The notes under the pieces were generated by a model. That model worked only from the letters and a program-made list of their open reading frames with translations, was not told where the DNA came from and searched no databases. 20,000 nucleotides of DNA from an uncultured virus (IMG/VR IMGVR_UViG_3300027754_000074) (taxonomy: Duplodnaviria; Heunggongvirae; Uroviricota; Caudoviricetes). Position numbers and translations under genes: made by a program. Of the stretch, positions 498 to 20,000 are shown piece by piece; within the stretch, counting starts at the first letter, position 1; every line of letters starts with the position of its first letter. The stretch lies in the IMG/VR virus record IMGVR_UViG_3300027754_000074; one strand, 5' to 3'.

Positions 498-1140
498 CCA
501 TGTACCGCCGTAACGCTTCCGCCTCATCCGCCGACACTACCGCCGCGACGGAGCTTGCCCTGTTCGCAGCCAACGACGGCGACCTGTACCGCTCGCAGGC
601 GCAGCCGATCATTACGAACCTTGCCAAGAAAATGGGGAAAGGACAATATGACGAGGCGAAAGCCGCGAAGCTGTGGGGCTACTTCGCAAACACCGCCGCG
701 CAAAAGTACGCATGGGAGTTCGGGGATCGCAAGCGCGGAACCCGGTCATGGCGGGAGCAAAGCGTAGACGGTAACGGTATGTTCAACGCGGCGACCCGCC
801 GCTTTGCGAGCGCGGAGCTTGAACACCACTACCGCGACGAGGTGACCTCGTTAGCGACCACGGCGCGGATGTCGGCGCGCAGCAACCCCCGTTCGAGCGG
901 GCAGACCTACAACGGGCACCCGTCGCGGGCACATTGGAACGTCGCCCTGTGGGTAGCAAACGACTACGGATTGTATCAAGCCGTCTCGCGCATGGGGAAA
1001 GCAGAGGCGGTAGAATTCCTCATGGATAGTTTTCCGCGCACACCGGACGGCGTGAAAATGACGAAAACCCTTGCCGCCTACGCATGGCGCAGCTTGAAGG
1101 ATTGACCCCCATGTACCGCCGTAACGCTTCCGCCTCATCC
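498..1140 (+). repeat. identical 32-bp direct repeat at 498-529 and 1109-1140
   Basis: CCATGTACCGCCGTAACGCTTCCGCCTCATCC in both places; encodes MYRRNASASS. Confidence 0.95.
500..1105 (+). CDS. two-module phage protein (MYRRNASASS leader, ARMSARSNPR linker)
   Basis: GGAG at 491-494 and ATG at 500 (track start 476 is probably too early). Module 1 ELALFAANDGDLY...KKMGKGQYD...KLWGY; module 2 YNGHP...WNVALWVANDYGLY; both resemble small phage hypothetical domains. Confidence 0.8.
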   Translation: MYRRNASASSADTTAATELALFAANDGDLYRSQAQPIITNLAKKMGKGQYDEAKAAKLWGYFANTAAQKYAWEFGDRKRGTRSWREQSVDGNGMFNAATRRFASAELEHHYRDEVTSLATTARMSARSNPRSSGQTYNGHPSRAHWNVALWVANDYGLYQAVSRMGKAEAVEFLMDSFPRTPDGVKMTKTLAAYAWRSLKD

Positions 1141-1475
1141 TCCGTACTCGACGCCGCACGCGCCGTCGCGGATCTTTCGCGCACCCTGACCGCCTCCTAT
1201 GTGAGCGCCCGCCTGTCCACGCTGGGCGGGGAAAACAGGGCTTCTACCATAATCACCGTTAGTCTCGACCCCAAGAGCGCGTGGACTAACGGCGTCCTCC
1301 AGAATAGCCGTTATGCGTTGTTTTCGGTGCATCCGGCGGATGGGACTATCGAGCTTTTTTCGGGCTCCGGAATCCCGAAGTTTCGCAAGGCTCAATTCAA
1401 GACGCCTGCGGAAGCCGTCGCCAAGATCGAAGCGTGGGTGGGGAAGGCGCGGATGTCGGCGCGCAGCAACCCCCG
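862..1475 (+). repeat. identical 30-bp direct repeat at 862-891 and 1446-1475
   Basis: GGCGCGGATGTCGGCGCGCAGCAACCCCCG in both places; encodes ARMSARSNPR. Confidence 0.95.
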
Positions 1476-2323: not shown

Positions 2324-2845
2324 ATGACCACCGCTACCGCCGTTTTTACCGCCCCCGTCTCCGATACCGCTGAAGCCCGCGTCACGCGGGATGAGCCTAT
2401 CGTGCGCGAAATGGTGCAATCCCTCGAAGTGGCGATAGCTCGGTGCGCGCTCGATCCGGAGCGGGACGCCCTCGAAGAGCGGGCGATCCTCAAAGCGGTA
2501 CGGCTACTCGACAAGCACCTGAGCGACGTGTTCGGGCCGGATAGCGTGCGCGCCGCCTTCCGGCAGGCGTTGTACGCGCTGGGCGACCTCCGGGCGACCC
2601 GTACCCCGTTCCTGCTCTCCGACGACGTGACCGTGCTGTGGATTGACCTCTACCCGGCAGCGGGCGAAGACGGGCGAGCCGCGCACGTCTACCTCGACGC
2701 CGACCGGGTGACGCTGAAGGCGCGGGCGCGCTGGGCGCGCATCGCTCCGAAACCGACCAAAGCCGTAGCCGCGCCGATCCTCCCCGACATCCTGACCGCT
2801 CCGAAGCCCCCGCGCCCCTCGAAGCGCATGGAGAGTAGCCCGTGA
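2324..2845 (+). CDS. hypothetical protein (173 aa)
   Basis: ORF in the operon orientation; stop overlaps the next start (GTGA). Confidence 0.7.
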   Translation: MTTATAVFTAPVSDTAEARVTRDEPIVREMVQSLEVAIARCALDPERDALEERAILKAVRLLDKHLSDVFGPDSVRAAFRQALYALGDLRATRTPFLLSDDVTVLWIDLYPAAGEDGRAAHVYLDADRVTLKARARWARIAPKPTKAVAAPILPDILTAPKPPRPSKRMESSP

Positions 2846-3696
2846 ACGAAATCCAACCGCTGATCATGCCCGCAGGCGTCACGGCTACCCCCGTGACCCT
2901 CGATCCGCCGAAGACCTACCACCTCCCCAATTGGGGGCGGATGTCCGATCCGGATCGCCTAAAGTTTCTCCGCTCGGTCGCGGAGCAACGCGGGCGCGAC
3001 CCCCGGATCCGTGAGCTTGCGTTCACGTTGATCGCCGGCACGCAGGAACGCGACTACCCGGCGCAAGCCGCCCGCCTCCTGAAAGCGGTGCAACCCGGCG
3101 GCCCTCTCATGGCTTACGTCAATGAGCCGGGCGAGGTATTGCAGGATCCGATCTACACCCTGAAGGTAAAGGCCGGCGATTGCGACGATGCCGCCTTGCT
3201 TTTGTCGTCTCTTTTCGAGGCGCTTCGGATGCCTTGGCGCTACGTCCTCTCCGGCATGAACCCGATCACAAAAGAGCGGGTTCGCTGGGTAGAAGGTACG
3301 CCGTACCCGCACGGCGTCCGCTGGGCGCACATTTACACGCGGGTAGGCTGGCCGGTCTTCGCGCCGAAAACGTGGGCGTGGGCGGAGCCGACCGTCCGTA
3401 ACGCCCCCCTCGGCTGGGACGTGACCGGGCACATGGAACGCACCGGGCAAGCCGGCTTGCCGGAGCTTGGAGACGCGGGCGCTCCGGCGCTCCCCGTGAG
3501 CAACGCCCCCGTGACGATTACCGCCCCGCCGTCTGCTCTCCGCGACATCGCTACCCGCATCGGCGGCAGCGTGGCAGGTAGCGGGCAGCGGGGGCTTGTG
3601 GAGACGGTGCTCCTCAGCGTGGCGGCTACCGTGCTCGCTACCGCCGTGCTCGACTACCTACGCGCCCGCAAAGTGATCCCGACGCCCTCCCGATAG
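2842..3696 (+). CDS. transglutaminase-like (papain-fold) Cys protease with C-terminal TM anchor
   Basis: GDCDD (catalytic Cys), WAHIY (His), WAEPT (acidic residue); upstream Y.NEP..E.LQ.P..TL motif; C-terminal hydrophobic helix followed by RARK. Confidence 0.8.
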   Translation: MNEIQPLIMPAGVTATPVTLDPPKTYHLPNWGRMSDPDRLKFLRSVAEQRGRDPRIRELAFTLIAGTQERDYPAQAARLLKAVQPGGPLMAYVNEPGEVLQDPIYTLKVKAGDCDDAALLLSSLFEALRMPWRYVLSGMNPITKERVRWVEGTPYPHGVRWAHIYTRVGWPVFAPKTWAWAEPTVRNAPLGWDVTGHMERTGQAGLPELGDAGAPALPVSNAPVTITAPPSALRDIATRIGGSVAGSGQRGLVETVLLSVAATVLATAVLDYLRARKVIPTPSR

Positions 3697-4233: not shown

Positions 4234-4287
4234 ACGTTGCCCCGCAGGGCCATAAACGGTACTCTCTCGCACTTAGCGGAGTGTGCT

Positions 4288-4881
4288 GTGATCCCTTTTT
4301 CCCCTACCGTGGCCGCCTTGATCGCAGCCGCCGGTGAGATCGTGCCGTCTACCTTGGCCGGTCGCATCGCCCTACTCGACCGCCGCGCCGGAATTGAGCG
4401 CGCCGCCGCCGCCAAAGCCGTCCGCGAGCACAAGCCGGGATGGCGCGTCACGCGCACGTTTCACCTGACCCGCTCGCGCTATCTGGAGCAGGAAGCGGTG
4501 CGCCTCCGCGCCATTCTGGCCCGTCAGTCGCGCCCCGCGCCCTTCCGCCCGCGCCCGTTGGTGACACCTTCGAGCTTCCGCCCCGGCTACCGCCCCCCTC
4601 CGCCCGCGTACTACGCGCCGCCCGTCTACACCCCGCCCGTGCGCCCCGCTCCCCTGTTCGCGCCGGGCGTCTATGGCCCCTCGGCGGAGATGGAAGAGGC
4701 CGCCCCCGCCGTTATGGAACCGTCCACCATCGCGCAGCAAGAGAACGCCTCCGCCCTCCCCGATGTCGGGCCGTGGTACACCCGCCCGCTCGGCGTGGGC
4801 GCGCTGGTGTTCGGCGGCGTGGTTGCCGTGATCGCCCTCCGCAAGAAGGGCAAGAAGGGCAAGGCGGATAAAGCGGCATGA
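4288..4881 (+). CDS. putative virion membrane protein, Pro-rich, C-terminal TM plus basic tail
   Basis: GGAG 4278-4281, GTG 4288; ends PWYTRPLGVGALVFGGVVAVIALRKKGKK. Confidence 0.75.
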   Translation: MIPFSPTVAALIAAAGEIVPSTLAGRIALLDRRAGIERAAAAKAVREHKPGWRVTRTFHLTRSRYLEQEAVRLRAILARQSRPAPFRPRPLVTPSSFRPGYRPPPPAYYAPPVYTPPVRPAPLFAPGVYGPSAEMEEAAPAVMEPSTIAQQENASALPDVGPWYTRPLGVGALVFGGVVAVIALRKKGKKGKADKAA

Positions 4882-5138
4882 GCTTTAGTTCTGCGAGCCT
4901 CCTACCCCTCGGCGTCAAGCTGGCCGATTTGGTCAAGTCCGCCGTCGATCAATACGCCGTCCTGAAGGGCGCGGGGATTGAAGTCAGCGCGGACGTGCTC
5001 GGCGCGTTCCTACTGGCGAAAATGGACGGGTGGGCTCCCACCGTAGCCGGTCGCCGGGTACTCTCTGACGACGAGACGCGCACCGCTTTTGCACGGGCGC
5101 TTGCCGGTATCGCCTTCGACCTTTCACGCGGAACGTGA
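4878..5138 (+). CDS. small hypothetical protein (86 aa)
   Basis: ATGA overlap with the previous stop. Confidence 0.7.
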   Translation: MSFSSASLLPLGVKLADLVKSAVDQYAVLKGAGIEVSADVLGAFLLAKMDGWAPTVAGRRVLSDDETRTAFARALAGIAFDLSRGT

Positions 5139-5141
5139 TCT

Positions 5142-6107
5142 ATGTACGGTACAACCTCTGATTCGATGTTCGGTGACGATGGGATGTTCGCGGGCGATTA
5201 CGGCGCTCCGCCGGCTATGCCCGCGTCCGGTATTCCGCAGGTGCCGGGTACGGTGATCTCCGCTGAAGCCGCGTTGCCGCCGGGCGTCAAGGCGCAGCCG
5301 GGTACGGTCATTGTGAGTCAGACACCGCTCCCGGCGGGCGTCAAGGCGCAGCCGGGTACGGTCGTGGTCGCGGATGTCTCCGCAGCCCCCCGCGTGCCGG
5401 AGTTCGCCACCGTGCGCCCTCTGTCCACCGTAGGACGTGGCGGGCGCTCGATCAATGGGGGGCTCCCGCCTCTCCCGGCGGGGCAACCTCCCGGCATTGA
5501 CACAACGCTGTGGATGACCGGAGGCGGTACGAATATGCCCCTACCGGGCCGCCCTGTAGGCTCGACACCCTACCCCTACGATATGCAGCGTTTTCGCGGC
5601 GAGACGGTCGGGAGCTACTTCGGGCAGATGAAACCCGGTATGGATTACTGGTCAGGAACCGACGTTACCTACCGCGACGTGAAGAGCCTAAACTACGCGA
5701 CGGACGGCTACGTTTACCGGCTCTACAACGATCCGGCGCAGTCTATCGACGTGATCAAGGCCGGGAAGGTCGTAGCCAAGCGGATCACCGCCGCGTCCAG
5801 CCCGGCGGCGTACAAAGCCATTATGGACGAAGTACAGGGCAAGAAGCGGGTAGACCCCGCGCTGCTGATTGCGGCGATCAACGCAGGTACGATCATCGGC
5901 GTAGCCGCCGTAAGCGCCCTCGCCCCGAAGCCAAAGCGGCGTAAGGCGTTCGAGGCGTCCGCAGCCGCCGCGCCCGTCGCGGAGCCCGTCTCGACGGGGA
6001 TCCCGACGTGGGTATGGGTTGCAGGCGGCGGCGTCGTGCTCGCCGGTATCGGCCTTATGGTGTTCGGTCGTCACTCCGAGCCCGAAAAGGCGAAGGGCGC
6101 GGCCTAA
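5142..6107 (+). CDS. putative virion membrane protein with two hydrophobic helices and an internal 18-aa repeat
   Basis: PGVKAQPGTV repeat; C-terminal PTWVWVAGGGVVLAGIGLMVFGR anchor. Confidence 0.8.
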   Translation: MYGTTSDSMFGDDGMFAGDYGAPPAMPASGIPQVPGTVISAEAALPPGVKAQPGTVIVSQTPLPAGVKAQPGTVVVADVSAAPRVPEFATVRPLSTVGRGGRSINGGLPPLPAGQPPGIDTTLWMTGGGTNMPLPGRPVGSTPYPYDMQRFRGETVGSYFGQMKPGMDYWSGTDVTYRDVKSLNYATDGYVYRLYNDPAQSIDVIKAGKVVAKRITAASSPAAYKAIMDEVQGKKRVDPALLIAAINAGTIIGVAAVSALAPKPKRRKAFEASAAAAPVAEPVSTGIPTWVWVAGGGVVLAGIGLMVFGRHSEPEKAKGAA

Positions 6108-6439
6108 TGCCCCCCGCCTTCGATACCGGGCGGGCTTACGGTGCGTTCGATGTGAGCACTATCGATCCAACCGTGCTGGTAGAGCTTGTCAAAAGCACTA
6201 CCGCTATCACCACCACAGGTATCAAAACGGCGGCGGAGTTAGCCGCCGCGAAACGGGAAAAGGACGCTAAAAAGAAGAAAACCTCTTCCGCCCCCGCCCC
6301 TTCCCCCGTGGTCGTCGCCGCCGCCCCGCGCTCCGCCGTCCCCGGCTGGGCTATCGGGCTGGGCGCGGTCGCCGTGGTCGGCGTCGTAGGTCTGATCCTG
6401 TTTTTGCCGAAGGCGGCTCCCGCGAGGACGAAACGATGA
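6107..6439 (+). CDS. putative virion membrane protein, C-terminal TM
   Basis: TAATG coupling gives ATG 6107 (MPPAFDTGRAYGAF); ends PGWAIGLGAVAVVGVVGLILFLPK. Confidence 0.75.
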   Translation: MPPAFDTGRAYGAFDVSTIDPTVLVELVKSTTAITTTGIKTAAELAAAKREKDAKKKKTSSAPAPSPVVVAAAPRSAVPGWAIGLGAVAVVGVVGLILFLPKAAPARTKR

Positions 6440-7017
6440 ATCTTTACCTCCCCTTCCCTCCCCCCGGAAAAACGGAGCCCGCTACGGGCAACGTCCGCGT
6501 GGTCTATGGGCCTAACGGTCGCCGCCGTAAAACCATGCTGCTCCGCCGCGTGGCGCAGCCGCCGCAGCCGGTCGTGATCACCCCGTCCCCCTACATCATC
6601 GCGTGGGGCGCGACGGACAACCGCGCCACCGAAGCCTCGAACCGGGGGCCGGAGCCCTTCGAGGATCAGTTTCAAGCGTACCTGCCTACCGCCGTGCAGG
6701 CGGTCAGCGCCCTAACGGAAGGGGACGCCCGCACGCAGGTAAATCTGCTTGAAACGAAGATCCGCAACTACGAAAACATGAAGCGGACGCCCCCGTACAA
6801 CGTCGTGCCCGGCACGCTTTGGTACGACAACGAGATCGCCAAAATGCGCGCCCGCTTGATCGCCGCCCGGCAAAAGCTCGCCCTCACCCGCGAGGGGGAA
6901 AGCGCGACCCGCGATTGGCGCAACCTCGGACAAACGGCGCTCGGCGTCGGCATCGTCGCCGGTGTCGCGTTGGTCATGCTCACCCTTGCGGGCACCGCTC
7001 GCGTAGCACGGCGGTAA
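6436..7017 (+). CDS. putative virion membrane protein, coiled coil plus C-terminal TM
   Basis: ATGA coupling; ends LGVGIVAGVALVMLTLAGTARVARR. Confidence 0.75.
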   Translation: MNLYLPFPPPGKTEPATGNVRVVYGPNGRRRKTMLLRRVAQPPQPVVITPSPYIIAWGATDNRATEASNRGPEPFEDQFQAYLPTAVQAVSALTEGDARTQVNLLETKIRNYENMKRTPPYNVVPGTLWYDNEIAKMRARLIAARQKLALTREGESATRDWRNLGQTALGVGIVAGVALVMLTLAGTARVARR

Positions 7018-7019
7018 CC

Positions 7020-7457
7020 ATGTTCGACGCTTACGGAGCCCCCGCCCTTACCCCCGCCTGCGCCGCCCTGCTGGCGCAGCGAAAAGCCGCGCTGCGCGAA
7101 ATGGCACGCTCCCCCTTGTTTAGCCCCCGCCGGAGAGCGGCGGAGAAAGAAGCGAACCGCTTAGGGAAGCTCTACAACGCTTGCAAGCGAGCGGCGCACA
7201 AAGCCAAAGTGGAAGCCCGGAAAGCGAGCGCGATCCGTTCGAGCCGCCCGGCCCCCGCTCCCGAAGCGGAGCCCCCGGACGTGCCCGAAGTGGTGGATAC
7301 CCCCGCCGGGATCGTCGCGGCCCCCTCTGGCCCGTCTACTACCGTGCTCGTCGTGGGCGGCGTAGCCGCGCTGGCTATCGTGGGCGCGCTCCTGTTCGCC
7401 GGCAAGGGCGGCGGATCGGCCCCCGTCAGCTACACGTCGCAGCGGAGGCGCAAATGA
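7020..7457 (+). CDS. putative virion membrane protein, C-terminal TM
   Basis: ATG 7020 (MFDAYGAP) 2 nt after the previous stop; VLVVGGVAALAIVGALLFAGK anchor. Confidence 0.75.
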   Translation: MFDAYGAPALTPACAALLAQRKAALREMARSPLFSPRRRAAEKEANRLGKLYNACKRAAHKAKVEARKASAIRSSRPAPAPEAEPPDVPEVVDTPAGIVAAPSGPSTTVLVVGGVAALAIVGALLFAGKGGGSAPVSYTSQRRRK

Positions 7458-8092
7458 CGACCCAATTTCTCCCCCTCGGATATGGGGCTCCGCCTCCGGA
7501 GGTCGCGGACTACTCGACGGACACCGAAAATATGGCTCGCGGGCGCGCTGGGCGCAAGGCCGCCGTAGGCGTGGCTATGTCCGCAAGCTCCCTCGTACTC
7601 AGCGCCGCTATTGGCACGGCGGCTATCCCTGCGGTGCCGTGGACGCAGATCGCCGCCGCCGTAGGTGTCGCCGTCGCTGGGTGTCTCGCCGCCGGAGAGG
7701 CTATCGGAGCGCGCAACGAGAAAATCCTACGCGGCGACGAATCCGCGATTGTGCCCTTCATAAAGGCGGTTTCGCGCTGGAAGTCTGACAAGCGCAAGAA
7801 GGTCGCGGAGCGCCTGCTAAAAGAGTATCAAAACCACCTCCAACACGAAAAGACCGGCGTGTTTGCGAAGGCGTGGCGGATCCGGAAAAACGCGCTCGCT
7901 ATGAAAATGGGCGCGTTGTACGCTGCGGAATCGCATAATCGGCGTAAGCCAAACGTCGCCCTCGACCCCGCCGGCCCGACCCCCGCACAGGTAGAGGCGG
8001 AGCCGGAGATCCCCGCGTGGGTGTGGGTGGGCGGCGGAGTCGCCGTTTTCGCTATCATCGGTGCCGCCGTAGCGCGGCGGAGGTCGTCGTGA
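7454..8092 (+). CDS. putative virion membrane protein, several hydrophobic helices
   Basis: GGAGG then ATG 7454 (ATGA overlap); ends PAWVWVGGGVAVFAIIGAAVARRRSS. Confidence 0.75.
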   Translation: MTTQFLPLGYGAPPPEVADYSTDTENMARGRAGRKAAVGVAMSASSLVLSAAIGTAAIPAVPWTQIAAAVGVAVAGCLAAGEAIGARNEKILRGDESAIVPFIKAVSRWKSDKRKKVAERLLKEYQNHLQHEKTGVFAKAWRIRKNALAMKMGALYAAESHNRRKPNVALDPAGPTPAQVEAEPEIPAWVWVGGGVAVFAIIGAAVARRRSS

Positions 8093-8658
8093 ACACTTAC
8101 GGAAACATCCTTACTTGTCACTTCGGAACGTACAATACCTGCGCGTGGGAAGAGAGCGCGAAGGTGCGTACCTACGGCGATTTTCTGCTGCTGGCGGCTA
8201 CGGCGCTGAAAATGGCGAATCTGTCCGCTATGGCCGCCGCCCCCGAAAAGGTGCTCGACGGCAGCGGGCGGGCGTATTTTCCGCCTCCCTCGACGGGTAC
8301 GACGGTAGCCTCCCTGTTCGCACGCCTCAAAAAGCTGGTAGCGACAAGCCCTACCGCTGTCGCGCTGGTCGTCTCGAAAGCCTCCGAATACTACACGAAT
8401 GTAGAATTGGCGACGGGCAAGGACTACAAAGCACCCGTAACAGGTACGCAAAAGCGCGGGCCGGGCGTCCCCGCCGCCTCCGCCGCGCCGACGTTTCAAC
8501 CCTCGACCCCCTACGCGCCCCCTGCCTCTGTAGCTCCGGCTCCGGCGGTCGAAGTGCCCCCGGAAACCCCGTTCTATCAGCGGGAATGGTTCGCGCCCGT
8601 CGCGGTCGTCGCGGTGCTCGGTGTGGCCGCCCTGTTCCTTTTGCCAAAGCGAGCGTAG
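8089..8658 (+). CDS. putative virion membrane protein, C-terminal TM
   Basis: GGAGG then GTG 8089 (GTGA overlap); ends PFYQREWFAPVAVVAVLGVAALFLLPKRA. Confidence 0.75.
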   Translation: MNTYGNILTCHFGTYNTCAWEESAKVRTYGDFLLLAATALKMANLSAMAAAPEKVLDGSGRAYFPPPSTGTTVASLFARLKKLVATSPTAVALVVSKASEYYTNVELATGKDYKAPVTGTQKRGPGVPAASAAPTFQPSTPYAPPASVAPAPAVEVPPETPFYQREWFAPVAVVAVLGVAALFLLPKRA

Positions 8659-12225: not shown

Positions 12226-12260
12226 GTAGCACACACAAGGCCACAACGTAGCACGTTTCT
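12226..12260. promoter_or_regulatory. candidate operator/promoter with repeated GTAGCAC between divergent genes
   Basis: GTAGCACA (12226-12233) and GTAGCACGTTTCT (12248-12260), 22 bp apart. Confidence 0.45.
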
Positions 12261-12337
12261 GTGCCGGATCGCGTTGCCCGTCGCGCCTCGCCGGGGGAAG
12301 ATGCCCCATCCTTCCGTTCACCTCTCTGGAGTACCCC

Positions 12338-13543
12338 ATGATCCACCGTCGCAACCCGATGCCCATGTCTGGGGCTATTTTCCTGACCAACGGCAAGCGC
12401 CGTAACGGCAAGCGCCACAGCAAGAAGCACGGCGCGCACGGTCGCGTGATCGCTCGCTTCAACCGCTCCCGCAAGCGCCGTAACGGTTTGGCCGTTCGTA
12501 CCAACCGCAAGCGCCGTAACGGGCTCGCCGTCCGCACCAACCGCAAGCGCCGTAACGGGCTCGCCGTCCGTACCAACGGTTTGGCCGTTCGTACCAACGG
12601 AAAGCACCGCCGTAACGGAAAGCACCGCCGTAACGGGCTCGCCGTCCGTACCAACGGAAAGCGCCGCAGCGGCGGCGGCGGCGGCTTGTCGCTCAACGCC
12701 ATTTTCTCCCCCGTCGCCAAGATCCTGAACAAGATCCCCGGCGGCAAGATGATCACCCCGTACCTCGCCCCGGCGGCGTTCGGCGCGCTCGGCCTGCTCG
12801 GCGTCCATATTGGTCTGAAGCTCGGCGCACGCTTCATTCCTACGATGGTCAAGGGCTACGTCACCCCCGTAGGCTACACCCTCGGCGGCCTTGTCCTCGG
12901 CGCGCTGGTGCAGTTTGTCCCCGGTATCGCCAAGAACGACAAAAAGGCGCTCGCGGCGGCTATGATCGTCGGCGGAGCCGGCGTTGACGTGTTCCGCAAG
13001 CTCACCAACTCCACCACGCTTGGCGACGAGTACGGCGAAGGCGGCCTGTGGCAGCTTGGCGGCGACGAACTCGGCGGCGAGATGGCGATGAGCTACCACG
13101 ACGCCGACGCCGCCGCGCTCGGTTCCGAGTACGCCGACGCCGAAATGGCCGATGCCTACTACAGCGGAGCCGACCTTGACTCCGTGGAAGGCGAGGCCGC
13201 TTTGGCTGGCCCGAAGAATTGGCGTCGTCGCTTCCCCGCGACCCGCCGGGCCTCCGGCGCGAAGACGGCGTGTAGCCGCCACGCGCAGAAGCACGGTCAC
13301 CGCTGGGCGTGGCTCTGCAAGCTCGTCGGTTTCCAGAATTTCCAAGCGATTGTCGCTCTCCCCGCTGAACAGCGTGTCGCCTACATCGCGCAGCTTCGGC
13401 AGCAGGCGATCAGCAGCATCCCCGGCGGCAGCTACCCCCGCTCCGCTGAGCTTTCCATGAATATGCCTTCCGGGCAGAATTCCGTGATCGAAGGCTACGG
13501 CGCGACCATGTACGCCGGTGGCGGCGCTGGCGCAGCGTTCTAA
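12338..13543 (+). CDS. putative core/DNA-condensing membrane protein with Arg-rich RRNG/RTNG repeats
   Basis: GGAG before ATG; basic tandem repeats, then 2-3 hydrophobic helices, an acidic Gly-rich linker and a C-terminal domain; immediately upstream of the capsid candidate. Confidence 0.8.
   Translation: MIHRRNPMPMSGAIFLTNGKRRNGKRHSKKHGAHGRVIARFNRSRKRRNGLAVRTNRKRRNGLAVRTNRKRRNGLAVRTNGLAVRTNGKHRRNGKHRRNGLAVRTNGKRRSGGGGGLSLNAIFSPVAKILNKIPGGKMITPYLAPAAFGALGLLGVHIGLKLGARFIPTMVKGYVTPVGYTLGGLVLGALVQFVPGIAKNDKKALAAAMIVGGAGVDVFRKLTNSTTLGDEYGEGGLWQLGGDELGGEMAMSYHDADAAALGSEYADAEMADAYYSGADLDSVEGEAALAGPKNWRRRFPATRRASGAKTACSRHAQKHGHRWAWLCKLVGFQNFQAIVALPAEQRVAYIAQLRQQAISSIPGGSYPRSAELSMNMPSGQNSVIEGYGATMYAGGGAGAAF
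12470..12667 (+). repeat. coding tandem repeat of 18/36-bp units (RKRRNG, LAVRTN[G], KHRRNG)
   Basis: Near-identical units such as CGCAAGCGCCGTAACGGGCTCGCCGTCCGTACCAAC; two synonymous variants of LAVRTN. Confidence 0.95.
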
Positions 13544-13548
13544 GCTCT

Positions 13549-13576
13549 TCCGCCGCCTCTTCACGGGGGCGGCGGA
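13549..13576 (+). other. strong RNA hairpin upstream of the capsid candidate (processing, stabilising or attenuating)
   Basis: TCCGCCGCCTC / GGGGCGGCGGA 11-bp stem followed by a long pyrimidine tract. Confidence 0.55.
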
Positions 13577-13618
13577 TCCCCTTTCCCTGTCTCTCTTTTC
13601 CTGACTTTTGGAGTTTTC

Positions 13619-14338
13619 ATGTACCACGCTCCCGGTTCTATCGTTCTCGGCACTGACACCGGTGCCGCTCTCCCCCAGATGCCCCTTGACGCGCCGAAGC
13701 AGCTTTTCCGCTACGGCGAGCAGTCGATTTGGTCGAGCCAGTTTCACGCTGGCGCTTCCGCTATTGTAAACGGCACTTTCCGCCTGTTCACTACCCCGCA
13801 GGGGCAGCAGGGGCAGGGCTATAACGGCGGTTTGTCCATCGCGGAAACCAACCTGAAAGAAGGAGGCAGGATCCCCAACGGCGTCGCTTACGACGTGTTC
13901 GGTATCGCTCTCCAGCCCGCGCACTTCTCGCAGGCTGCGGACTCGCAGACCGCCGGGCAGGCTGTTGACAACGCCGTTGAAATTGGCGACCTGACCAACA
14001 TCCTTGCGAACGGTGTTGCGACCTGGGACTTCACCCAAACTACCGTCGATGTTTGCCCCCTCACCCTCATCGGTGCCGGCGGCGGCGTCTTCGGCGCTCT
14101 CGCGGCAGCGGTCGGCGCGGTTCCTACCGCTGGTGCGGCGATCACCACGGTCGGCAACATGAATAATGGTGCTGGATCCGTATGGCTTTATAGAAAGTAC
14201 CCGATTGCTTTGCCCGGAAACACGACTTTTGCGATGCTGCTTCGCTACGGTTCCCGCGCTCCGAACATCGGCACCAACGCCATCGAGCTTCGCTTCGTCC
14301 TGCTTGGCTACTATAAGAACATTATTGAGATTGCGTAG
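13619..14338 (+). CDS. probable major capsid protein (beta-rich, jelly-roll-type candidate)
   Basis: Clear GGAG RBS, codon usage of a highly expressed gene, hairpins on both sides, alternating beta-strand pattern (FRLFTTP..G, ETNL..GGRIP.G..YDVFGI, IELRFVLLG). Fold is inferred. Confidence 0.6.
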   Translation: MYHAPGSIVLGTDTGAALPQMPLDAPKQLFRYGEQSIWSSQFHAGASAIVNGTFRLFTTPQGQQGQGYNGGLSIAETNLKEGGRIPNGVAYDVFGIALQPAHFSQAADSQTAGQAVDNAVEIGDLTNILANGVATWDFTQTTVDVCPLTLIGAGGGVFGALAAAVGAVPTAGAAITTVGNMNNGAGSVWLYRKYPIALPGNTTFAMLLRYGSRAPNIGTNAIELRFVLLGYYKNIIEIA

Positions 14339-14387
14339 CTTATACCTACGTTTCTCGCGGATGTTGTAGTCCAAAAGAACACCCGTT

Positions 14388-14420
14388 AGGCGGTACTCTC
14401 TCGCGGGGGTGCCGCCTTTC
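14388..14420 (+). terminator. intrinsic terminator-like hairpin after the capsid candidate
   Basis: AGGCGGTACTCTC-TCGC-GGGGGTGCCGCCT stem-loop followed by a short T run. Confidence 0.6.
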
Positions 14421-14488
14421 GCGTAGCGGGATAGCGATAGCTTCCCTTCCTTTTCCCTTTGCCCCCCGCCCCCTTCGGAGCCGCCTCA

Positions 14489-15202
14489 ATGTACCAAGAC
14501 TCTTTCGGTCGCCCTTGCGATCAAAACGGCTACCTCGTTGACCCGCGCACGAAAGAGTACATTCGGGGGCCGAACGGGCAACCCGTACACTCGTCGCAGG
14601 CTCCCGCCGCGCCGGGGTACGGCGGCATGAACACCAGCAACTACGGGAAAGAGCCGCCTCCGCCCCCGATGGACGCCTCTGCGACCCTGACGCAGCCGAA
14701 AATGGCCGACCTCGGACGCCGCGACGACGGGCAGCCGGAGTGGTATCGCATGGCGTGGTTCCCTACCTCGCCGTTTTTCAGCACGCGCCCGGACGTGGGC
14801 TATCAACCCCGCTTCTACTCGGTCGAGGTACTGAACGCCGCAGCGGGTACGGAGGTCGTCTCGACCATCCAATTTGACCTCCCGTGCCGTGTCGTGGCGA
14901 TCAATGGATCCTCGTTCTCGACCGCCGCCGGAAACACGCTCCCCGTGGGCGTTGGCCCCCGCGATTCCTTCATGTTCCGTATGGAGTACACCACGGGCGA
15001 CCGCCTGCACATCAACAGCCGGATCGCCTCTCTGTACGTCGGTACGGCGGAGCGTCCGGGTGAGATCGGCGGCGTCGGGTACACCATCGACGGCGGATCG
15101 GTCAGCATCGGGATTACCCCGCTGATCGCCAACCTCCGGATCAATATCGCGCTGCATTGTGTCGAAATGCGCGGCCCCCGCAACTACGTCACTAGCCGGT
15201 AG
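14489..15202 (+). CDS. putative minor capsid/vertex protein: low-complexity N-terminus, beta-sandwich C-terminus
   Basis: GGAG 14477-14480, ATG 14489; C-terminal ~120 aa of alternating beta strands. Confidence 0.6.
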   Translation: MYQDSFGRPCDQNGYLVDPRTKEYIRGPNGQPVHSSQAPAAPGYGGMNTSNYGKEPPPPPMDASATLTQPKMADLGRRDDGQPEWYRMAWFPTSPFFSTRPDVGYQPRFYSVEVLNAAAGTEVVSTIQFDLPCRVVAINGSSFSTAAGNTLPVGVGPRDSFMFRMEYTTGDRLHINSRIASLYVGTAERPGEIGGVGYTIDGGSVSIGITPLIANLRINIALHCVEMRGPRNYVTSR

Positions 15203-15220
15203 CACCGGGATAGAGGGACT

Positions 15221-15883
15221 ATGCCGCAAGGCCCGAGCAATTCCGGATGGCCCCCGTCAAACCCTCCGGGGTTTTTCGGGCCGTTCAACCCCGTGGGGCC
15301 GTCTGCGAACCCCGGCGGCACAAACCCGTTTCCGCTCCCGTCCAATCTCCCTGTTCCCTCGCATGACTTCCCCCGCAACCTGCTAACGTGGGTAGCGGGT
15401 AGCCCCTCCGGAAACCCGGTGTCAGGCGTGACGGAAGCAACGCTGTGGACGGCGACGTGGAACACGGCGATCCTCGACCTCCGCCCGGAGCTTCGCGCCT
15501 CGAACGTAGCCGCGCCCATGAACGTATGCCCCGTGTGGCGGCAGACCTACGGGGTGGGCGGTCAGCTATTCGTGCAGGTAGAAAACCTGCTCGGCACGAT
15601 CCAGACCAACGGCAGCACGCCGAATTGGCTAAATAACCTCGTTGTAAGCTCTATCGAATCGGCGCACCCGAACGATCCGGCGCTTGTCGCCACGGCGATT
15701 CAGCCGGAGGACATTTCGAGCAACTTTACCAACCAGCAGCAGGCGGCGATCCTGACGTTCACCCCGCCCGGTTTAGGGTGCCCCGTGCGTTACTGGCAAT
15801 CGACGCTTGTTTTTGACATCCTCGATGTTCCGGGCTCCCCTACCCCGCCCCCCATTTTCTTTATCTCTGCGGCGTACTACTAA
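15221..15883 (+). CDS. putative structural protein, Pro/Asn/Gly-rich N-terminus, beta-rich body
   Basis: GAGGG RBS; position in the structural block; TAATG coupling to the next gene. Confidence 0.65.
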   Translation: MPQGPSNSGWPPSNPPGFFGPFNPVGPSANPGGTNPFPLPSNLPVPSHDFPRNLLTWVAGSPSGNPVSGVTEATLWTATWNTAILDLRPELRASNVAAPMNVCPVWRQTYGVGGQLFVQVENLLGTIQTNGSTPNWLNNLVVSSIESAHPNDPALVATAIQPEDISSNFTNQQQAAILTFTPPGLGCPVRYWQSTLVFDILDVPGSPTPPPIFFISAAYY

Positions 15884-16269
15884 TGCCTATCGCACGTCCC
15901 TACGGCAACGGCAGTACGGCGGCGACCTCGCCCCCGTGCAACCTCCGCCGCACTATCACCCTCGCCGACGACAACACGTTTGCGACGACGCCCCTGCTTG
16001 TCGAGGGCTTGCCAAACCTGTTTTTATGGGCGTGGCAAACGAGCGGCAACGTGGCGGGCACGATGCTCTGGCAATGGTCGGCACGCGCCACCACAGGCCC
16101 GCTCGATGAGTGGTTGCCCTTGCTTCCCTCCACGGGTACGCCGCTTGTGGTCGGATCGAACGTCTACTACAACGTCCCGGCGTTCAGCGCGAAGCGGATC
16201 CGCCTGCAACTGACGCGCTCGCTGGGCGTGGCTACCACCGTCGAGATTTTCTACGGCGGCACCGTCTAA
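15883..16269 (+). CDS. putative small beta-sandwich structural protein (128 aa)
   Basis: Short strands ending KRIRLQLT...VEIFYGG. Confidence 0.6.
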   Translation: MPIARPYGNGSTAATSPPCNLRRTITLADDNTFATTPLLVEGLPNLFLWAWQTSGNVAGTMLWQWSARATTGPLDEWLPLLPSTGTPLVVGSNVYYNVPAFSAKRIRLQLTRSLGVATTVEIFYGGTV

Positions 16270-16278
16270 GGGGGGATC

Positions 16279-16833
16279 GTGTTTCTGCTCCCGCTTACGG
16301 TCATGCCGAAGATCACGTCACCCTTTGGCGGGCGGTTCGATCCGTACTTCAAGAAGCAGCACATCCATAACGGGCTCGATATGGCCGTCCCCTCCGGTAC
16401 GCCTGTACTGGCGGCTGCGGCGGGTACGGTAGTCTCCGAGTGGACGGCGACGGCGGATGGGAAGGCGCAGCCGAACGGTAACGCCTTGAAAATCGATCAC
16501 GGCAACGGGTACGCGACCGCCTACCTGCACCTGTCCTCGAAGGCGGTAGCGAAGGGGGCGACGGTGCGCGCCGGGCAGGTGATCGGCTACGTCGGGAGCA
16601 CGGGAGCGAGCACAGGCCCGCACCTGCACTTCATGGTGTACCAAAATGGGACGCCGGTGGATCCGAAGCCCTTTATTGTCTGGAGTGTCGGCACGCAGAT
16701 CGCCGGTGTCGCCCGGTCGGCAGCGATGACGTGGTGGGTATGGGCGGGTATCGCAGGGATAGGGCTTTTGGTCATTCTACGGGCTCGCGGGAACGCGGGC
16801 ACCCCGAAGCCTACCCCTACCTTCCCCGCTTGA
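16279..16833 (+). CDS. peptidase M23 family metalloendopeptidase with C-terminal TM anchor
   Basis: ITSPFG..R, HNGLD (HxxxD), YLHL, GSTGASTGPHLHF (HxH), VDP; then WWVWAGIAGIGLLVILRAR. Confidence 0.92.
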   Translation: MFLLPLTVMPKITSPFGGRFDPYFKKQHIHNGLDMAVPSGTPVLAAAAGTVVSEWTATADGKAQPNGNALKIDHGNGYATAYLHLSSKAVAKGATVRAGQVIGYVGSTGASTGPHLHFMVYQNGTPVDPKPFIVWSVGTQIAGVARSAAMTWWVWAGIAGIGLLVILRARGNAGTPKPTPTFPA

Positions 16834-16860
16834 CGCGCAAACCATTTTACCGGTACAAAT
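16830..16860 (+). promoter_or_regulatory. possible sigma70-like promoter
   Basis: TTGACGCGC (same 9-mer as at 447) and AT-rich GGTACAAAT shortly before ATG 16865, which has no clear RBS (possibly near-leaderless). Confidence 0.4.
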
Positions 16861-16864
16861 ATCC

Positions 16865-17575
16865 ATGCCTGTCCGTTACTACCTCTCCCCCCTGACCAAC
16901 CCGCTACCCCCCGGCGAACGCGAACGGCGGGCGCAGGAGCGCCGCGATTATTACATTGACCTGCGCGCCTCGGAAGCGGCCCGGAAAGCCCCCCGGATAG
17001 AAGACGCGATTTGTATACAATGTGGCACGGCGTTTCCGAAACGCGTCGGAGGGCGGGGCCGCCCGCCGGAGTATTGTAGCGAAGAGTGCCGGGAATTCAG
17101 CGCGGCGCTTACGATCCTCAAAAAGTGGGCCGAGCCTGTGGCGAAGCGGTCTACTGCGGCGGCGTGGTCGAGTGTCCGCACGGATCTTTGGTCGTTAGCC
17201 AACGCTGCGCCCGCGTTCCAGAAGGACATGGCCGCCCGCTCGAAAGCCCGCAAGGCGGAGATTGCCGCCGCGCAAGCTGCGGGCATTATTCCGAAGCGAG
17301 AAAAGCTAAAAGTTACGTTCGAGCTTGTTATCGGCGGAGCCCCGCTCGATAAGGTGTTTGATCGGAAGGCCGCCGCCGAAAAATACGCGGAAGCGTTCAC
17401 CGCAAAATACCCCGGAAAGGTCGTTGACGTTCGCACGACGCTCGGAAAGGAACGCAAATCCCGATGGTACAATGGCAAGAAGATTGAGCTATTGGATTCC
17501 TATGTTGAAATGCCCGGTCAACCGGACTTGCGGCGTAATCGCGGTCGCGGTCGCGGACGTGGGCGCGGTCGGTAG
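16865..17575 (+). CDS. Zn-finger protein (CxxC...YCSxxC) with RG-repeat tail
   Basis: CIQCGTAF...GRGRPPEYCSEECR; ends LRRNRGRGRGRGR. Confidence 0.75.
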   Translation: MPVRYYLSPLTNPLPPGERERRAQERRDYYIDLRASEAARKAPRIEDAICIQCGTAFPKRVGGRGRPPEYCSEECREFSAALTILKKWAEPVAKRSTAAAWSSVRTDLWSLANAAPAFQKDMAARSKARKAEIAAAQAAGIIPKREKLKVTFELVIGGAPLDKVFDRKAAAEKYAEAFTAKYPGKVVDVRTTLGKERKSRWYNGKKIELLDSYVEMPGQPDLRRNRGRGRGRGRGR

Positions 17576-18180
17576 TGGGCGCGCTCTCCGCTTCCATCGT
17601 CGGCGTGTCTGCGGACAAGCTGGCTTTTGTGGACTTGATCGAGCGCGAATTCGTGGCTGCGGGGTACTCGCTCCCGGTGGCCGCCGCCGCCGTGGTCAAC
17701 GCTTACGCGGAGAGTAGCCTAAACCCGCTCGCTGTCGGGGATAATGGGCGGTCGGTCGGTCTATTCCAACTGAATATCCGGGGCGCGGGCGCGGGAATGA
17801 CGACGGCGGCCCGGCAGGATCCGCTAACGAACGTGCGGACGCTGATCGCCCGTGAGCGGAGCGCGCTCGGCAAGGTGGCGGCGGGCGCTGCTGCGGGCGA
17901 GGGGATCCCCCGTCTCGCCGCCCTGTTCAGTACCTACGTCGAGCGCCCGGCGAACAAGGCGCTATCGGAATCGTACCGGAGCGCGCTCGCTTTCCGCCTG
18001 TTCCCGCTGGGGATACGGGCGGAGGTCGCCGCGCCTGACCGTAGCACGCCGGAGGCTACGAAACGTAGCACAAACACCGTTTTCCTATGGGGGCTCGCTG
18101 GGTTAGCCACCATCGGACTACTCTCCGCCGTCCTACGCGCTCGCAATCTCGCGGAGCGTGCTCCCCGCTCTGGAGCCTGA
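17575..18180 (+). CDS. lysozyme-like (phage tail lysozyme type) muralytic enzyme with C-terminal TM anchor
   Basis: AAAAVVNAYAESSLNPLAVGDNGRSVGLFQL (catalytic ES, GLFQ), later VERPA; C-terminal VFLWGLAGLATIGLLSAVLRAR. Confidence 0.8.
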   Translation: MGALSASIVGVSADKLAFVDLIEREFVAAGYSLPVAAAAVVNAYAESSLNPLAVGDNGRSVGLFQLNIRGAGAGMTTAARQDPLTNVRTLIARERSALGKVAAGAAAGEGIPRLAALFSTYVERPANKALSESYRSALAFRLFPLGIRAEVAAPDRSTPEATKRSTNTVFLWGLAGLATIGLLSAVLRARNLAERAPRSGA

Positions 18181-20000
18181 CCCCTTGCAAGCCTTGATCG
18201 TCGCCGTGCTCCCGATGCTGATTAGCGCGCTCAGTAGCGTGCTGGGGAAGAGCGTTTCCGAATTCAACGCGCTACCGCGTAGCGAGCGCCCGGCGAAGCT
18301 CCGGGCCGTTCTGCGCTCCAAATGGATGTGGACAAACCCGCCCGCAGCTATCGCGGCGCGGGCGCTGGCCGCGACCGACGCGGGCGTAAACGCGGCGGTC
18401 AATGCGCTTGAAAAGTACGGCGCGGGGGCGGTCGCCGCCGGAACCGAAGCGGCGCACGCCGCCGCCGAAAAACACCTCACTAAGAACCCTCGCTCCGGAG
18501 GCCGCATGGCCCGCGTCCGTATCGCCCCGTCTATCCCGTCCTACGCCCTCGACCGCCTCGACGTGACCCGCGCCCGGCGGAACGGCGCGCACGTTTCGCC
18601 CGATACTCTGACCACGCTAAACGTCGGGGATCGCTTCGTTATTCGGGACGAAGATAGCCCGGATCGGGATTCGCTTCCATACACCGTGACGTATCGCAAG
18701 TTTGACGATGTGAAGGCGGAGACGATTACCGGCGGAAGCGTAAAGCTCTTCGCGGACGGGGCTACCGTAGCCATTCAGGGCAAGCGTGGCACCCGTACCG
18801 TCTACAGTATCCGCCGCGTCAACGGAGCCCGCAAAAACGGCTACTCCCGCCGCCGTAACTGCGGCGGGGATTGTGCCTGTGCGCCGTGTCAGGCCCGGTC
18901 GAACCCGGATCCGTTCGCCGCCGTCCGTCGCGCTATCGAAAAAGAGGTAGCCCGATTCGTTGAAAACGGCGGGGGCTTCGGTCAACGTAAGCTCATGGAT
19001 GCCGCGTACCGCGTCGAAAAAAAGCATTGGACATTGACGGGCGAGACGCTTCCCGTCGAGGCGGTCGTCGCCGAAATCAACGCCGCCCGCACCCGTGCCG
19101 AAGGGCTCCGGAGCGCGTACAACAAGCGAGCCCTGCACGCGGCGGAGCAGGCGTACCGCGACGAAATGCGCGGGCGGTCTTCGTACATGAATCCTCGCGC
19201 TCGCCGCAACGGAATGGGCACCGCCAAAGATACGACGATGCAGATTGAGCAGGCGGAACGGCTCATCGCGCAGGGAGACTTTGCGGGAGCCAAAAAACAC
19301 ATCGAAGCCGTCTACCAAGCGGCCCACGCGGCATGGCCGGCGAAGTGGGCGCAGGCTGCAATCCTCGACGTGAGCCTACTCCGGCGTGCTTGCGAGAAGG
19401 CAGGCGTTGCCATCGACCGCGTGAAATCAAACCCCCGCCACACCGCCGCTCGCCGCAACCACCATATCCGCGTCGGCGGCACGTTCTACACGCCGGGCGG
19501 GCGCATGGGGACGGTGCTCGCGGAGGCACGCGGCGGGTACTACCGGGTACGCTGGTCGGACGGCACGATGGGGAGCGTGCAGGATAGCGAAATGGCCGCC
19601 TACCCTACCGCCGGGAGCCGGGCGCGCACCAACGGAAAGAGCGATTACTACGCTATCGTGGTGGATATGGCAGGCAACGAGCACATGGTAGGCCCGATGG
19701 ATATGCGCGCCGCGCAGGATCGCGTCCGCGCCTTGGAGTCCAAGGGGATGCCCGATGGTTACGGCGGCCTCCGCCCGCTGAAGCGCGGGGCGGGACACAT
19801 CCGATCCGCTCAGGCGGTTATGTCTACCGCGCTGCTGAAGTACCGGAACCCCGGCACGCGCTCGAACGGGCGGAAGACGTTTCGTGTGCGCTTTCACTCC
19901 GCCGTAGGGCAAGGCTCCCGACTAAAGCAGGTTGTAGAGCGTTGGGGCGGAAAGGTCGGCGGGGGCGGAGTAGCTACGTTCTATGCTGCCGACGATGCCG
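18158..20000 (+). CDS. large modular polyprotein-like protein (partial, >600 aa) with [RK]xN[PG] linkers; not in the ORF track
   Basis: Hand translation finds no stop from GTG 18158 (alternatives TTG 18185, ATG 18215) to the window end; N-terminal hydrophobic segment, then roughly 55-100 aa modules separated by KNP, RRNG, RKNG, RSNP, MNP, KSNP, RTNG, RNP, RSNG. Confidence 0.85.
   Translation, partial: MLPALEPDPLQALIVAVLPMLISALSSVLGKSVSEFNALPRSERPAKLRAVLRSKWMWTNPPAAIAARALAATDAGVNAAVNALEKYGAGAVAAGTEAAHAAAEKHLTKNPRSGGRMARVRIAPSIPSYALDRLDVTRARRNGAHVSPDTLTTLNVGDRFVIRDEDSPDRDSLPYTVTYRKFDDVKAETITGGSVKLFADGATVAIQGKRGTRTVYSIRRVNGARKNGYSRRRNCGGDCACAPCQARSNPDPFAAVRRAIEKEVARFVENGGGFGQRKLMDAAYRVEKKHWTLTGETLPVEAVVAEINAARTRAEGLRSAYNKRALHAAEQAYRDEMRGRSSYMNPRARRNGMGTAKDTTMQIEQAERLIAQGDFAGAKKHIEAVYQAAHAAWPAKWAQAAILDVSLLRRACEKAGVAIDRVKSNPRHTAARRNHHIRVGGTFYTPGGRMGTVLAEARGGYYRVRWSDGTMGSVQDSEMAAYPTAGSRARTNGKSDYYAIVVDMAGNEHMVGPMDMRAAQDRVRALESKGMPDGYGGLRPLKRGAGHIRSAQAVMSTALLKYRNPGTRSNGRKTFRVRFHSAVGQGSRLKQVVERWGGKVGGGGVATFYAADDA

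Follow-up and report, generated by a model that had tools for sequence, protein, structure and literature searches.

A short basic peptide motif, [RK]xN[PG], recurs in otherwise unrelated proteins encoded by a 20,000-nucleotide (nt) stretch of DNA from an uncultured virus (IMG/VR record IMGVR_UViG_3300027754_000074). We refer to this whole stretch as the window; it is 64% GC, and its plausible genes all lie on the + strand, as do the repeats described below. The motif is confirmed as real in the window and is a protein-level, lineage-specific short linear feature of a whole uncultured virus lineage, concentrated at the joints of shuffled modular proteins, in the basic arm of a conserved core protein upstream of the capsid genes, and near the N-termini of accessory proteins. 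We tentatively favor, at somewhat less than an even chance, the reading that the motif is a shared basic docking tag that would bind the polyanionic virion interior and recruit polyvalent accessory modules.

We compared counts of the strict motif [RK]xN[PG] in each of the 26 window proteins with 2000 within-protein shuffles per protein. The original prediction had the motif recurring in four otherwise unrelated genes, and three of these clearly exceed the shuffled background: 1084–2289 (4 strict copies vs 0.31 expected, p = 0.0005), 12338–13543 (10 vs 0.62, p < 0.0005) and 18158–end (8 vs 0.49, p < 0.0005). The fourth, 476–1105, is marginal by itself because it holds one strict copy against 0.12 expected (p = 0.12), or two against 0.34 when Ala is allowed after Asn (p = 0.045). 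All of the sites on which that prediction was built are present, including RRNA and RSNP in 500–1105, RRNA, RSNP, RHNP, two KLNP and RKNA in 1111–2289, and the dense array in 12338–13543; the 18158 protein, for which it gave 13 exact or variant copies, has 8 strict sites and 13 N[PG] dipeptides. Part of the window count reflects repeated DNA, namely the tandem repeats at 12469–12636 and the linkers of the first two genes, and these copies are not independent occurrences. Strict copies are absent from 22 of the 26 window proteins, and the motif is scarce in capsid, membrane and lysis proteins, among which the original prediction had named the membrane-anchored and lysis proteins.

Relatives of the window were gathered through an alignment of capsid homologs, which was needed to reach them, as a single-protein scan of viral contigs matched nothing; the resulting sample comprises 89 related loci (L001–L089), or 90 sources with the window included. 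Using a simple home-made rule on length and GC3 (GC content at third codon positions), we called 879 open reading frames (ORFs) in these sources and performed an unbiased scan of dipeptides, tripeptides and gapped triplets. R.NP tops the gapped triplets (233 observed vs 29.6 expected), NP leads the dipeptides (1049 vs 504), and RRN (238 vs 40), RKN (200 vs 33) and NPR (159 vs 30) rank high among tripeptides, with the other top-ranked signals around these three stemming from the conserved capsid protein; homologous proteins are non-independent counts, and kinship inflates such lineage totals. Across the 89 related loci [RK].NP occurs 332 times vs 53.3 expected (6.2x), compared with 3.1x in a control high-GC tailed phage (6 vs 1.9) and 1.5x (4 vs 2.6) and 0.25x (1 vs 4.0) in control cellular contigs from metagenome-assembled genomes (MAGs; sources G004 and G003, respectively). 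Similarly, R[RK]N is enriched 5.8–7.9x in the lineage and 0.5–1.9x in the controls. The enrichment is not an effect of DNA composition, because the 25 loci with less than 45% GC give 143 copies of [RK].NP vs 20.5 expected (7.0x), and we rejected a DNA-level origin as the general cause since low-GC relatives retain the motif, keeping DNA copying as a local layer. The plain NP excess (~2x) is not lineage-specific, because the control phage shows 1.8x.

From the lineage data, the motif is better stated as R-[RK]-N in basic surroundings, with P the preferred next residue, G the second choice, and A, S or T after that. Around NP, Arg is enriched 3.3x at position −2, Thr, Lys and Arg are enriched at −1, and Arg and Lys at +2 to +5; S-P, D-P and Q-P turns in the same lineage have no such basic context. 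Pro is the commonest residue after Asn, yet entire arrays use Gly, Ala, Thr or Ser instead (RRNG, RKNA, RRNT). The capsid families are depleted in the motif (1 vs 13.6 and 1 vs 7.4 expected), although this depletion is not a tally of independent losses because the capsid sequences are related, and the motif is absent from the replication enzymes of a complete IMG/VR relative of 72,988 bp (73 kb) with a 127-bp terminal repeat. An artifact of chance or of composition, stemming from high-GC proteins rich in Arg, Asn, Pro and Gly or from a few tandem repeats, could draw on the share of the window count supplied by tandem and dispersed DNA repeats and on the lack of significance of 476–1105 by itself. 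Against it stand the within-protein shuffles (p ≤ 0.0005 in three proteins), the lineage-wide 6–7x excess that includes low-GC loci and is accompanied by low controls, and the coincidence of motif and module boundaries described below, and we regard its probability as close to negligible.

The boundary position of the motif is clearest in the protein encoded at 18158–20000, which is cut by the window end and strings together ~7 modules through basic linkers, whose Asn residues lie at amino acids (aa) 110, 142, 222, 227, 249, 345, 351, 425, 492, 564 and 570. A profile-free exhaustive search with this protein returned 55 hits, and the local matches delimit modules at ~10–112, 138–227, 246–350, 356–427, 429–493, 464–561 and 562–614. 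These modules recur elsewhere and in other orders among the hits, where they are often motif-flanked as well, and module 10–112 is found at 668–761 of a 764-aa protein. Of 81 interior match edges, 44 fall at most 8 residues from a strict site (random 17.3 ± 8.8, p = 0.004), and lineage-wide the same holds for 131 of 922 partial-match edges vs 45.4 ± 8.4 expected (maximum 76 in 2000 trials). An AlphaFold model of the 18158 protein (44-row alignment, mean predicted local distance difference test (pLDDT) score 70.6) consists of confident modules split by segments of pLDDT < 50, which make up 22% of residues and contain 7 of the 8 strict sites and 9 of the 13 N[PG] dipeptides (binomial p = 1.7e-4); these segments are 22% Lys or Arg and 6% Asp or Glu. 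In collinear homologs, RANP, RVNP and RRNG stand opposite site 492 (RARTNG), and the Asn of site 249 is kept in 27 of 31 aligned rows. As judged from these alignments, motif sites persist or are rebuilt at locally shifted positions. The module-boundary position given in the original prediction is supported, and the checks it proposed came out in its favor as regards predicted disordered linkers and modules with stand-alone or reordered homologs, the latter also for the two genes at the start of the window.

The first of these genes, 500–1105 (GTG frame from 476), encodes a two-module accessory protein with the N-terminal tag MYRRNA (Asn codon at 512) and the linker ARMSARSNPR (Asn codon at 884); in the 476 frame RRNA occupies aa 10–13 and RSNP aa 134–137, and the C-terminal module is DUF7249/phrog_871. 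The second, 1111–2289 (frame from 1084), encodes a multi-module accessory protein that begins with the same MYRRNA tag and contains the linkers RSNPR (1468), RSENP/RHNP (1675, 1699), KLNPRK (1900) and KLNPRKNA (2068, 2080). Its aa 44–121 match phrog_3308, a further module matches S-CAM7 gp097, and the last module (aa 343–401) exists in Roseobacter phage CRP-125 and Pseudomonas phage Kremar as a complete, free-standing protein of 63 aa that is without the motif. A phrog_3308-type module travels with other leaders outside the lineage, because in the uncultured 485-kb phage LR745208.1 (L092 1411–1839) it stands behind a different N-terminal helix (…LIRLAHENPALRPQLLPLL…). Concatenation of mini-proteins is also seen in a 285-aa protein (G001 43395–44252, equivalent to L098 3395–4252), which is a string of phrog_2859, phrog_17747 and phrog_14910, the latter two matched across their full 63- and 80-position profiles.

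At the joints of these proteins the DNA itself is repeated. A 36-nt linker/tag repeat at 498–533 and 1109–1144 is 97% identical and followed at its two copies by unrelated modules, a 30-nt linker repeat encoding ARMSARSNP at 862–891 and 1446–1475 is 100% identical, and a 21-nt linker repeat encoding KLNPRK at 1893–1913 and 2061–2081 is 95% identical; BLASTP detected no similarity between the modules that these repeats enclose. In 25 long sources, motif zones cover 2.3% of the sequence and contain 19.6% of all nucleotides belonging to dispersed exact repeats 18 nt or longer, so the joints are also sites of intragenomic DNA identity. This identity is consistent with cassette exchange or with recent copying at linkers, as either cause or effect.

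These repeats are one ground for regarding the motif as a structurally convenient but functionally neutral joint. Asn-Pro or Asn-Gly would then form a turn or cap a helix within a basic spacer and would have been spread by recombination of linker DNA as cassettes were swapped, so that conservation would reflect copying and not recognition. Near-identical linker DNA between unrelated flanking modules (30 of 30 nt; 36 nt at 97%; 21 nt at 95%), the concentration of dispersed repeats in motif zones, the shuffled module order among homologs and the mild NP enrichment in the control phage all fit this explanation, as does N249-P250 of the 18158 protein, which lies 2 residues ahead of a predicted helix. 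However, the motif survives in relatives of 50% identity and over a range of 38% to 68% GC in which the codons differ, it is rebuilt at shifted positions in homologs, and its arrays are built from different repeat units in different genomes. It is moreover enriched at N-termini, where nothing is joined, and S-P, D-P and Q-P turns lack the basic context. We consider a neutral joint rather unlikely.

The densest motif array belongs to a conserved "core" protein encoded at 12338–13543, directly upstream of the capsid genes. The protein starts with a basic arm (aa 1–137), continues through hydrophobic helices and an acidic stretch rich in Gly and Asp, and then has a conserved GHRW.WL domain; the arm is 30% Lys or Arg and 0% Asp or Glu and holds the 10 motif copies. 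The 72 homologs of the core family are always encoded just upstream of the capsid gene and together contain 183 motifs vs 29.3 expected. In the 57 members with a placeable first transmembrane (TM) helix we counted 192 motifs in the 14,588 aa before the helix, where residues are 27% Lys or Arg and 4% Asp or Glu, and 12 in the 15,698 aa after it. The repeat units vary by genome while the motif is kept, as in KRRNGLAVRTN in the window and RKNPVRKRK... in L007 (39% GC); in the window, tandem DNA repeats with periods of 36, 21 and 18 nt at 12469–12636 encode the KRRNGLAVRTN/KHRRNG array. In the window protein and its homologs, short hydrophobic stretches (GLAV, YAILT, TLLMNL) lie between the motifs of the arm and give it a basic/hydrophobic alternation; the units may form beta-hairpins or amphipathic repeats rather than plain random coil.

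A further concentration of the motif is found at protein termini. Of 752 complete ORFs, 85 have NP among their first 12 residues (20.1 expected). When the core family is left out, 21 of 703 ORFs carry [RKH]xN[PG] in their first 15 aa (5.7 expected) and 12 in their last 15 aa (5.8 expected); for R[RK]N the figures are 29 vs 2.5 at the start and 10 vs 2.7 at the end, a picture that is unchanged with one representative per cluster. The C-terminal excess is thus modest in this wider 15-residue test without the core family, and none was seen in a 12-residue test that included it. In the window, GGAG-like ribosome-binding sites stand ahead of the ATG codons at 500, 1111, 12338 and 9594, which begin the proteins with MYRRNA, MYRRNA, MIHRRNP and MPINPK, respectively, and in the 73-kb relative a NUDIX enzyme begins with MKVRRNGSD.

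Two minor carriers named in the original prediction also bear their sites. The conserved WHWG-family protein at 9594–10181 is the one that starts with MPINPK, and its L007 homolog is fused behind other modules via the junction RFNPKPKSNPNKKK. The protein at 16865–17575 is a marginal carrier, with LTNP near its N-terminus and RRN and a DLRRNRGRGRGRGRGR tail at its C-terminus. It further contains two Cys pairs (CIQCG ... CSEEC) that form a possible zinc ribbon, and its C-terminal tail RGRGRGRGRGR is encoded by a 6-nt repeat at 17539–17571.

A docking tag would account for arrays, joints and both termini alike, and the motif's presence at extreme N-termini, less so at C-termini, and in a dense basic array fits binding at least as well as cutting. 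The proposal draws on the enrichment in the window and the lineage, on the concentration of sites in the core arm, in disordered linkers and near termini, and on the depletion in capsid families. In this lineage the motif supplies the repeat of a strongly positive arm at the N-terminus of a membrane-anchored core protein whose gene adjoins the capsid genes, it joins small modules that are freely shuffled in polyvalent accessory proteins, and it marks the start, less often the end, of single-domain accessory proteins. Each basic "sticker" would attach the protein that carries it to DNA, to acidic lipid or to the acidic tail conserved in the core protein, and tagged modules would be gathered into the nucleoprotein core and carried along with the genome; trimming at Asn by a viral protease could occur on top of docking. 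The sequences and models show enrichment, spread across the lineage, predicted disorder, boundary position and identical DNA at joints; binding, packaging and delivery are inferred.

Several observations weigh against such a tag. On their own, the two or three basic residues of an N-terminal tag would be weak binders, and simple charge binding needs neither an invariant Asn nor a following Pro or Gly. Acidic or neutral residues follow several sites (RSNPDP, RRNPDA, RKNPTP), a pattern closer to that of a site recognized specifically, and the excess of N-terminal over C-terminal enrichment is not predicted by a plain polyanion hook. The model of a virion interior also leans on weak evidence for the capsid fold (pLDDT 59; Z 6.2), as we identified neither a packaging ATPase nor a capsid structure.

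Several of these features would be better explained by a protease processing site, in which R-x-N is recognized and the chain is cut before Pro or Gly, and we hold this main rival to be a distinct though lesser possibility than docking. Cutting would remove N-terminal tags, free modules from polyvalent precursors and fragment the core arm. The position of the motif at module boundaries and in disordered linkers, its closeness to N-termini and its depletion in capsid proteins fit such a site, which also explains the N-terminal bias, the invariant Asn and the conserved preceding residues better than a docking tag does; in addition, the R, x and N on the P side are better conserved than the residues beyond Pro or Gly. 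Most proteases, however, disfavor Pro at P1′, and linker cutting alone leaves dense arrays and the RRNA, RRNT and RRNY variants unexplained. The enzyme in question could be one of the zincin-like modules found in some relatives, such as the HEYSH module of L007 3748–5631, or the only candidate protease of the window.

The latter is a putative Cys-His-Glu protein encoded at 2842–3696. It is transglutaminase-like, contains the invariant segments GDCDD, HIY and AEPT in this order, is anchored in the membrane by a TM helix at its C-terminus and has no strict motif copy. The original prediction named it as the protease, a claim that outran the evidence: its match to Transglut_core scores 18.9 bits, below the Pfam cut-off of 23 (E = 0.002), and we found no link between this protein and the motif. 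A homolog in relative L003 scores 32.8 bits (E = 9e-8), and 6 sequences of the family share C114, H163 and E182 without exception, a possible Cys-His-Glu triad. The gene is recurrent in the lineage, being present in 7 loci including the window and in 2 further records, and in relatives it precedes the capsid gene by ~7–10 kb; a search of 4 records did not find it in 2, both of them incomplete. The family profile gave nothing significant against the Protein Data Bank and has no solved relative, and a predicted complex of the transglutaminase-like domain with aa 405–500 of the 18158 protein scored 0.00, a result without verdict that is evidence neither way. The protein could equally act on peptidoglycan, like the neighboring M15, M23 and SLT enzymes, as on protein.

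By analogy, docking and processing would be compatible rather than exclusive. T4 and adenovirus pair targeting or DNA binding with trimming, and a processing site here would parallel T4 gp21 and its capsid-targeting sequence as well as the adenovirus protease with pVII and pX. In the boldest form of this combination, which we judge unlikely as a whole, the motif would be an addressing-and-release code of a major undescribed tailless phage group: tags would dock polyvalent anti-host modules and enzymes onto the DNA-core complex inside an internal membrane, and a membrane-anchored protease of transglutaminase fold would free them at Asn on maturation or entry. Such a code would be the bacterial-virus counterpart of the adenovirus protease/pVII and T4 capsid-targeting sequence/gp21 pairs, with a new site and a new protease fold, and recombination between identical linker DNA would allow cargo cassettes to be exchanged.

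The modules could also separate with no protease at all, through self-cleavage at Asn via a succinimide, for which reovirus mu1 Asn-Pro, nodavirus coat proteins and the NPTH site of FlhB/YscU are precedents. The invariant Asn followed by Pro or Gly, residues that confer special Asn chemistry, and the exposure of the sites are compatible with this route. Known Asn lyases need a folded catalytic environment, however, and the sites here are disordered and lack TH or a conserved partner; Asn-Gly chiefly deamidates and does not cleave, and the RRNA, RRNT and RRNY variants do not fit. We consider self-cleavage very unlikely. The parallels with FlhB/YscU and with legumain drawn in the original prediction fail on context, as the sites are disordered, NPTH is lacking and we found no C13 enzyme. 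Four further candidates were dropped: a Tat signal, since most tags have no following hydrophobic region; 2A-like NPGP ribosome skipping, since there is no NPGP consensus and the mechanism is eukaryotic; the N-glycosylation sequon, which Pro after Asn excludes; and sortase or exosortase signals, whose form does not match.

If the motif is a true address or processing code, it would provide a simple sequence rule for predicting the particle-carried proteins of a widespread uncultured phage lineage, would point to a membrane-anchored DNA-condensing core protein, of which we know no example in cultured phages, would show how small host-takeover module cassettes are strung together and exchanged, and could be put to use for filling such particles with cargo. 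As no more than a preferred joint it would still be a clean lineage-specific mark of domain boundaries that helps to parse otherwise unannotatable proteins.

The capsid genes downstream of the core gene form a motif-free block at 13619–16269 (13619–14338, 14459–15202, 15221–15883 and 15883–16269), the first of which encodes a putative jelly-roll-like major capsid protein. Among 4170 candidates we found 797 homologs of this protein at E ≤ 0.001, nearly all unnamed metagenome proteins and a few from Gemmatimonadota MAGs, on contigs from marine, freshwater and groundwater sources; this homology places the block in a virus lineage that is very large and unnamed. The predicted structure is beta-rich and of low confidence (pLDDT 59.2, predicted template modeling score (pTM) 0.64), Foldseek gave weak capsid matches that all have E > 0.001, and the best VIA match is the coat protein of cowpea mosaic virus (CPMV; Z 6.2, root-mean-square deviation 4.1, 139 aligned residues), with which carbohydrate-binding sandwiches tie. 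The capsid family profile matched no solved relative. In L008 an HNH/NUMOD4 homing-endonuclease gene (11150–12040) lies directly downstream of the major capsid gene (9983–10714).

On the basis of gene content, the window is probably the structural and accessory region of an undescribed, tailless, membrane-containing phage lineage. Pfam and PHROG profile scans of the 26 window proteins recognized few families and no terminase, portal or tail family: beyond three small domains of unknown function in the first two genes (DUF7249/phrog_871, phrog_3308), family matches comprise an M15 peptidase at 11415–11876, an M23 peptidase with a C-terminal hydrophobic anchor at 16279–16833, and an SLT/lysozyme-like protein at 17575–18180 with a hydrophobic anchor similar to that of the M23 protein. 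The 73-kb relative encodes a family-A DNA polymerase, integrase, SNF2 helicase, primase, Sak4-like protein, uracil-DNA glycosylase (UDG), NUDIX, M15 and M23, and no terminase, portal, HK97 capsid or tail family among its proteins (74 scanned with Pfam, 58 with PHROG). The sole tail-type matches in the window and this relative are those of M23, SLT and NUDIX domains to tape-measure or portal-fusion PHROGs. The pattern of tailless membrane phages, which lack terminase, portal and tail and carry many small membrane proteins in the structural block, is thus seen here, and a run of 7 proteins at 4237–9594 has C-terminal hydrophobic helices as read from sequence. A blastn search of 12001–20000 against phages yielded a sole match of 147 nt, in M23, and a tblastn search with the 18158 protein against phages yielded none.

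Further features of the window and its relatives lie outside the motif carriers. A related virus, L044, encodes a homolog of the archaeal chromatin protein MC1 (5858–6208; Pfam MC1, E = 2.4e-8), a second kind of DNA-compacting protein in the lineage. A 54-nt tandem repeat at 5243–5363 (2.2 copies, 81% matches) lies inside gene 5142–6107 and encodes PGTV(I/V)...LP(P/A)GVKAQ units in a membrane-anchored protein. Gene calls at 7181–8909 and 10181–10580 are uncertain, as these long TTG-start frames have unlikely Arg-rich N-terminal parts and their true starts are probably downstream; GC falls to ~0.60–0.62 between positions 10 and 12 kb of the window; and a minus-strand ORF at 12203–14374 (723 aa) that overlaps the core and capsid genes looks spurious.

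Among known systems, the modular proteins most resemble the polyvalent-protein class defined by Iyer et al. 2017 (PMC5512222), for which processing and delivery with the DNA have been proposed. The likeness to the class as described there lies in many small unrelated modules per polypeptide in shuffled orders, and the ~7 modules of the 18158 protein go beyond the at least two unrelated domains in variable order that characterize it. Motif-rich proteins of relatives also carry ART-PolyVal (L065, E = 1.2e-7), ParB_N, SNF2 and GNAT, whereas the window modules match none of the hallmark polyvalent Pfam families, only DUF7249, phrog_871 and phrog_3308, and the carrier virus is apparently tailless. 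The effector domains typical of the class are ART-PolyVal, DdrB-like ParB, MTase-helicase and MPTase. The passages of Iyer et al. 2017 on cleavage, autoproteolysis and asparagine describe no common linker or tag motif, and the terms "linker" and "transglutaminase" occur 0 times in that paper. Our literature searches, whose coverage left out most subscription journals and which extended to protamine-like phage core proteins, Asn-Pro autocleavage in phages and new single-jelly-roll families, showed nothing on the motif or the lineage among the papers listed.

Other parallels concern the motif itself. The capsid-targeting sequence of T4, trimmed by gp21, and the prohead motifs of giant phages are short peptides near the N-termini of internal head proteins, present in multiple copies in core proteins, that serve in targeting and trimming. 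By analogy, the motif here lies near N-termini (21 of 703 ORFs vs 5.7) and in arrays of a core protein, whereas the T4 and giant-phage motif ends in Glu and is not basic, and its protease is of the herpesvirus/S77 type in a tailed phage; we found no prohead protease of this type in the 26 window proteins or in the 73-kb relative (74 and 58 proteins scanned). Adenovirus pVII and pX are very basic DNA-condensing core proteins of a virus with a jelly-roll capsid and share a consensus site, (M/L/I)XGX-G, for the clan CE cysteine protease adenain; they resemble our case in the basic core protein and in a site common to several proteins, but they are not membrane-anchored as the core protein here is, and we detected no homology. 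Self-cleaving Asn-Pro proteins likewise break at Asn-Pro, but in reovirus mu1 and in the NPTH of FlhB/YscU single sites lie inside folded domains with conserved partners, whereas here many basic sites lie in linkers of pLDDT < 50, Gly, Ala and Thr variants occur, and the residues after NP are Arg, Met or variable.

Encapsulin cargo-loading peptides are, like the motif, short terminal or linker peptides on unrelated proteins, but they are hydrophobic and Gly-rich, bind an HK97-fold shell and do not form arrays, whereas the motif is basic and occurs in arrays. SPKK/SPRR turns and AT-hooks (RGRP) are short basic turn motifs in arms, linkers and termini that act as auxiliary DNA anchors; the core here is R-[RK]-N-[PG] and not RGRP or S/T-P-[KR]-[KR], and S-P in the lineage is without basic context, so the relation is one of resemblance in use and not of membership. 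What would be new in this lineage is a shared tag on polyvalent or core proteins of otherwise known kind.

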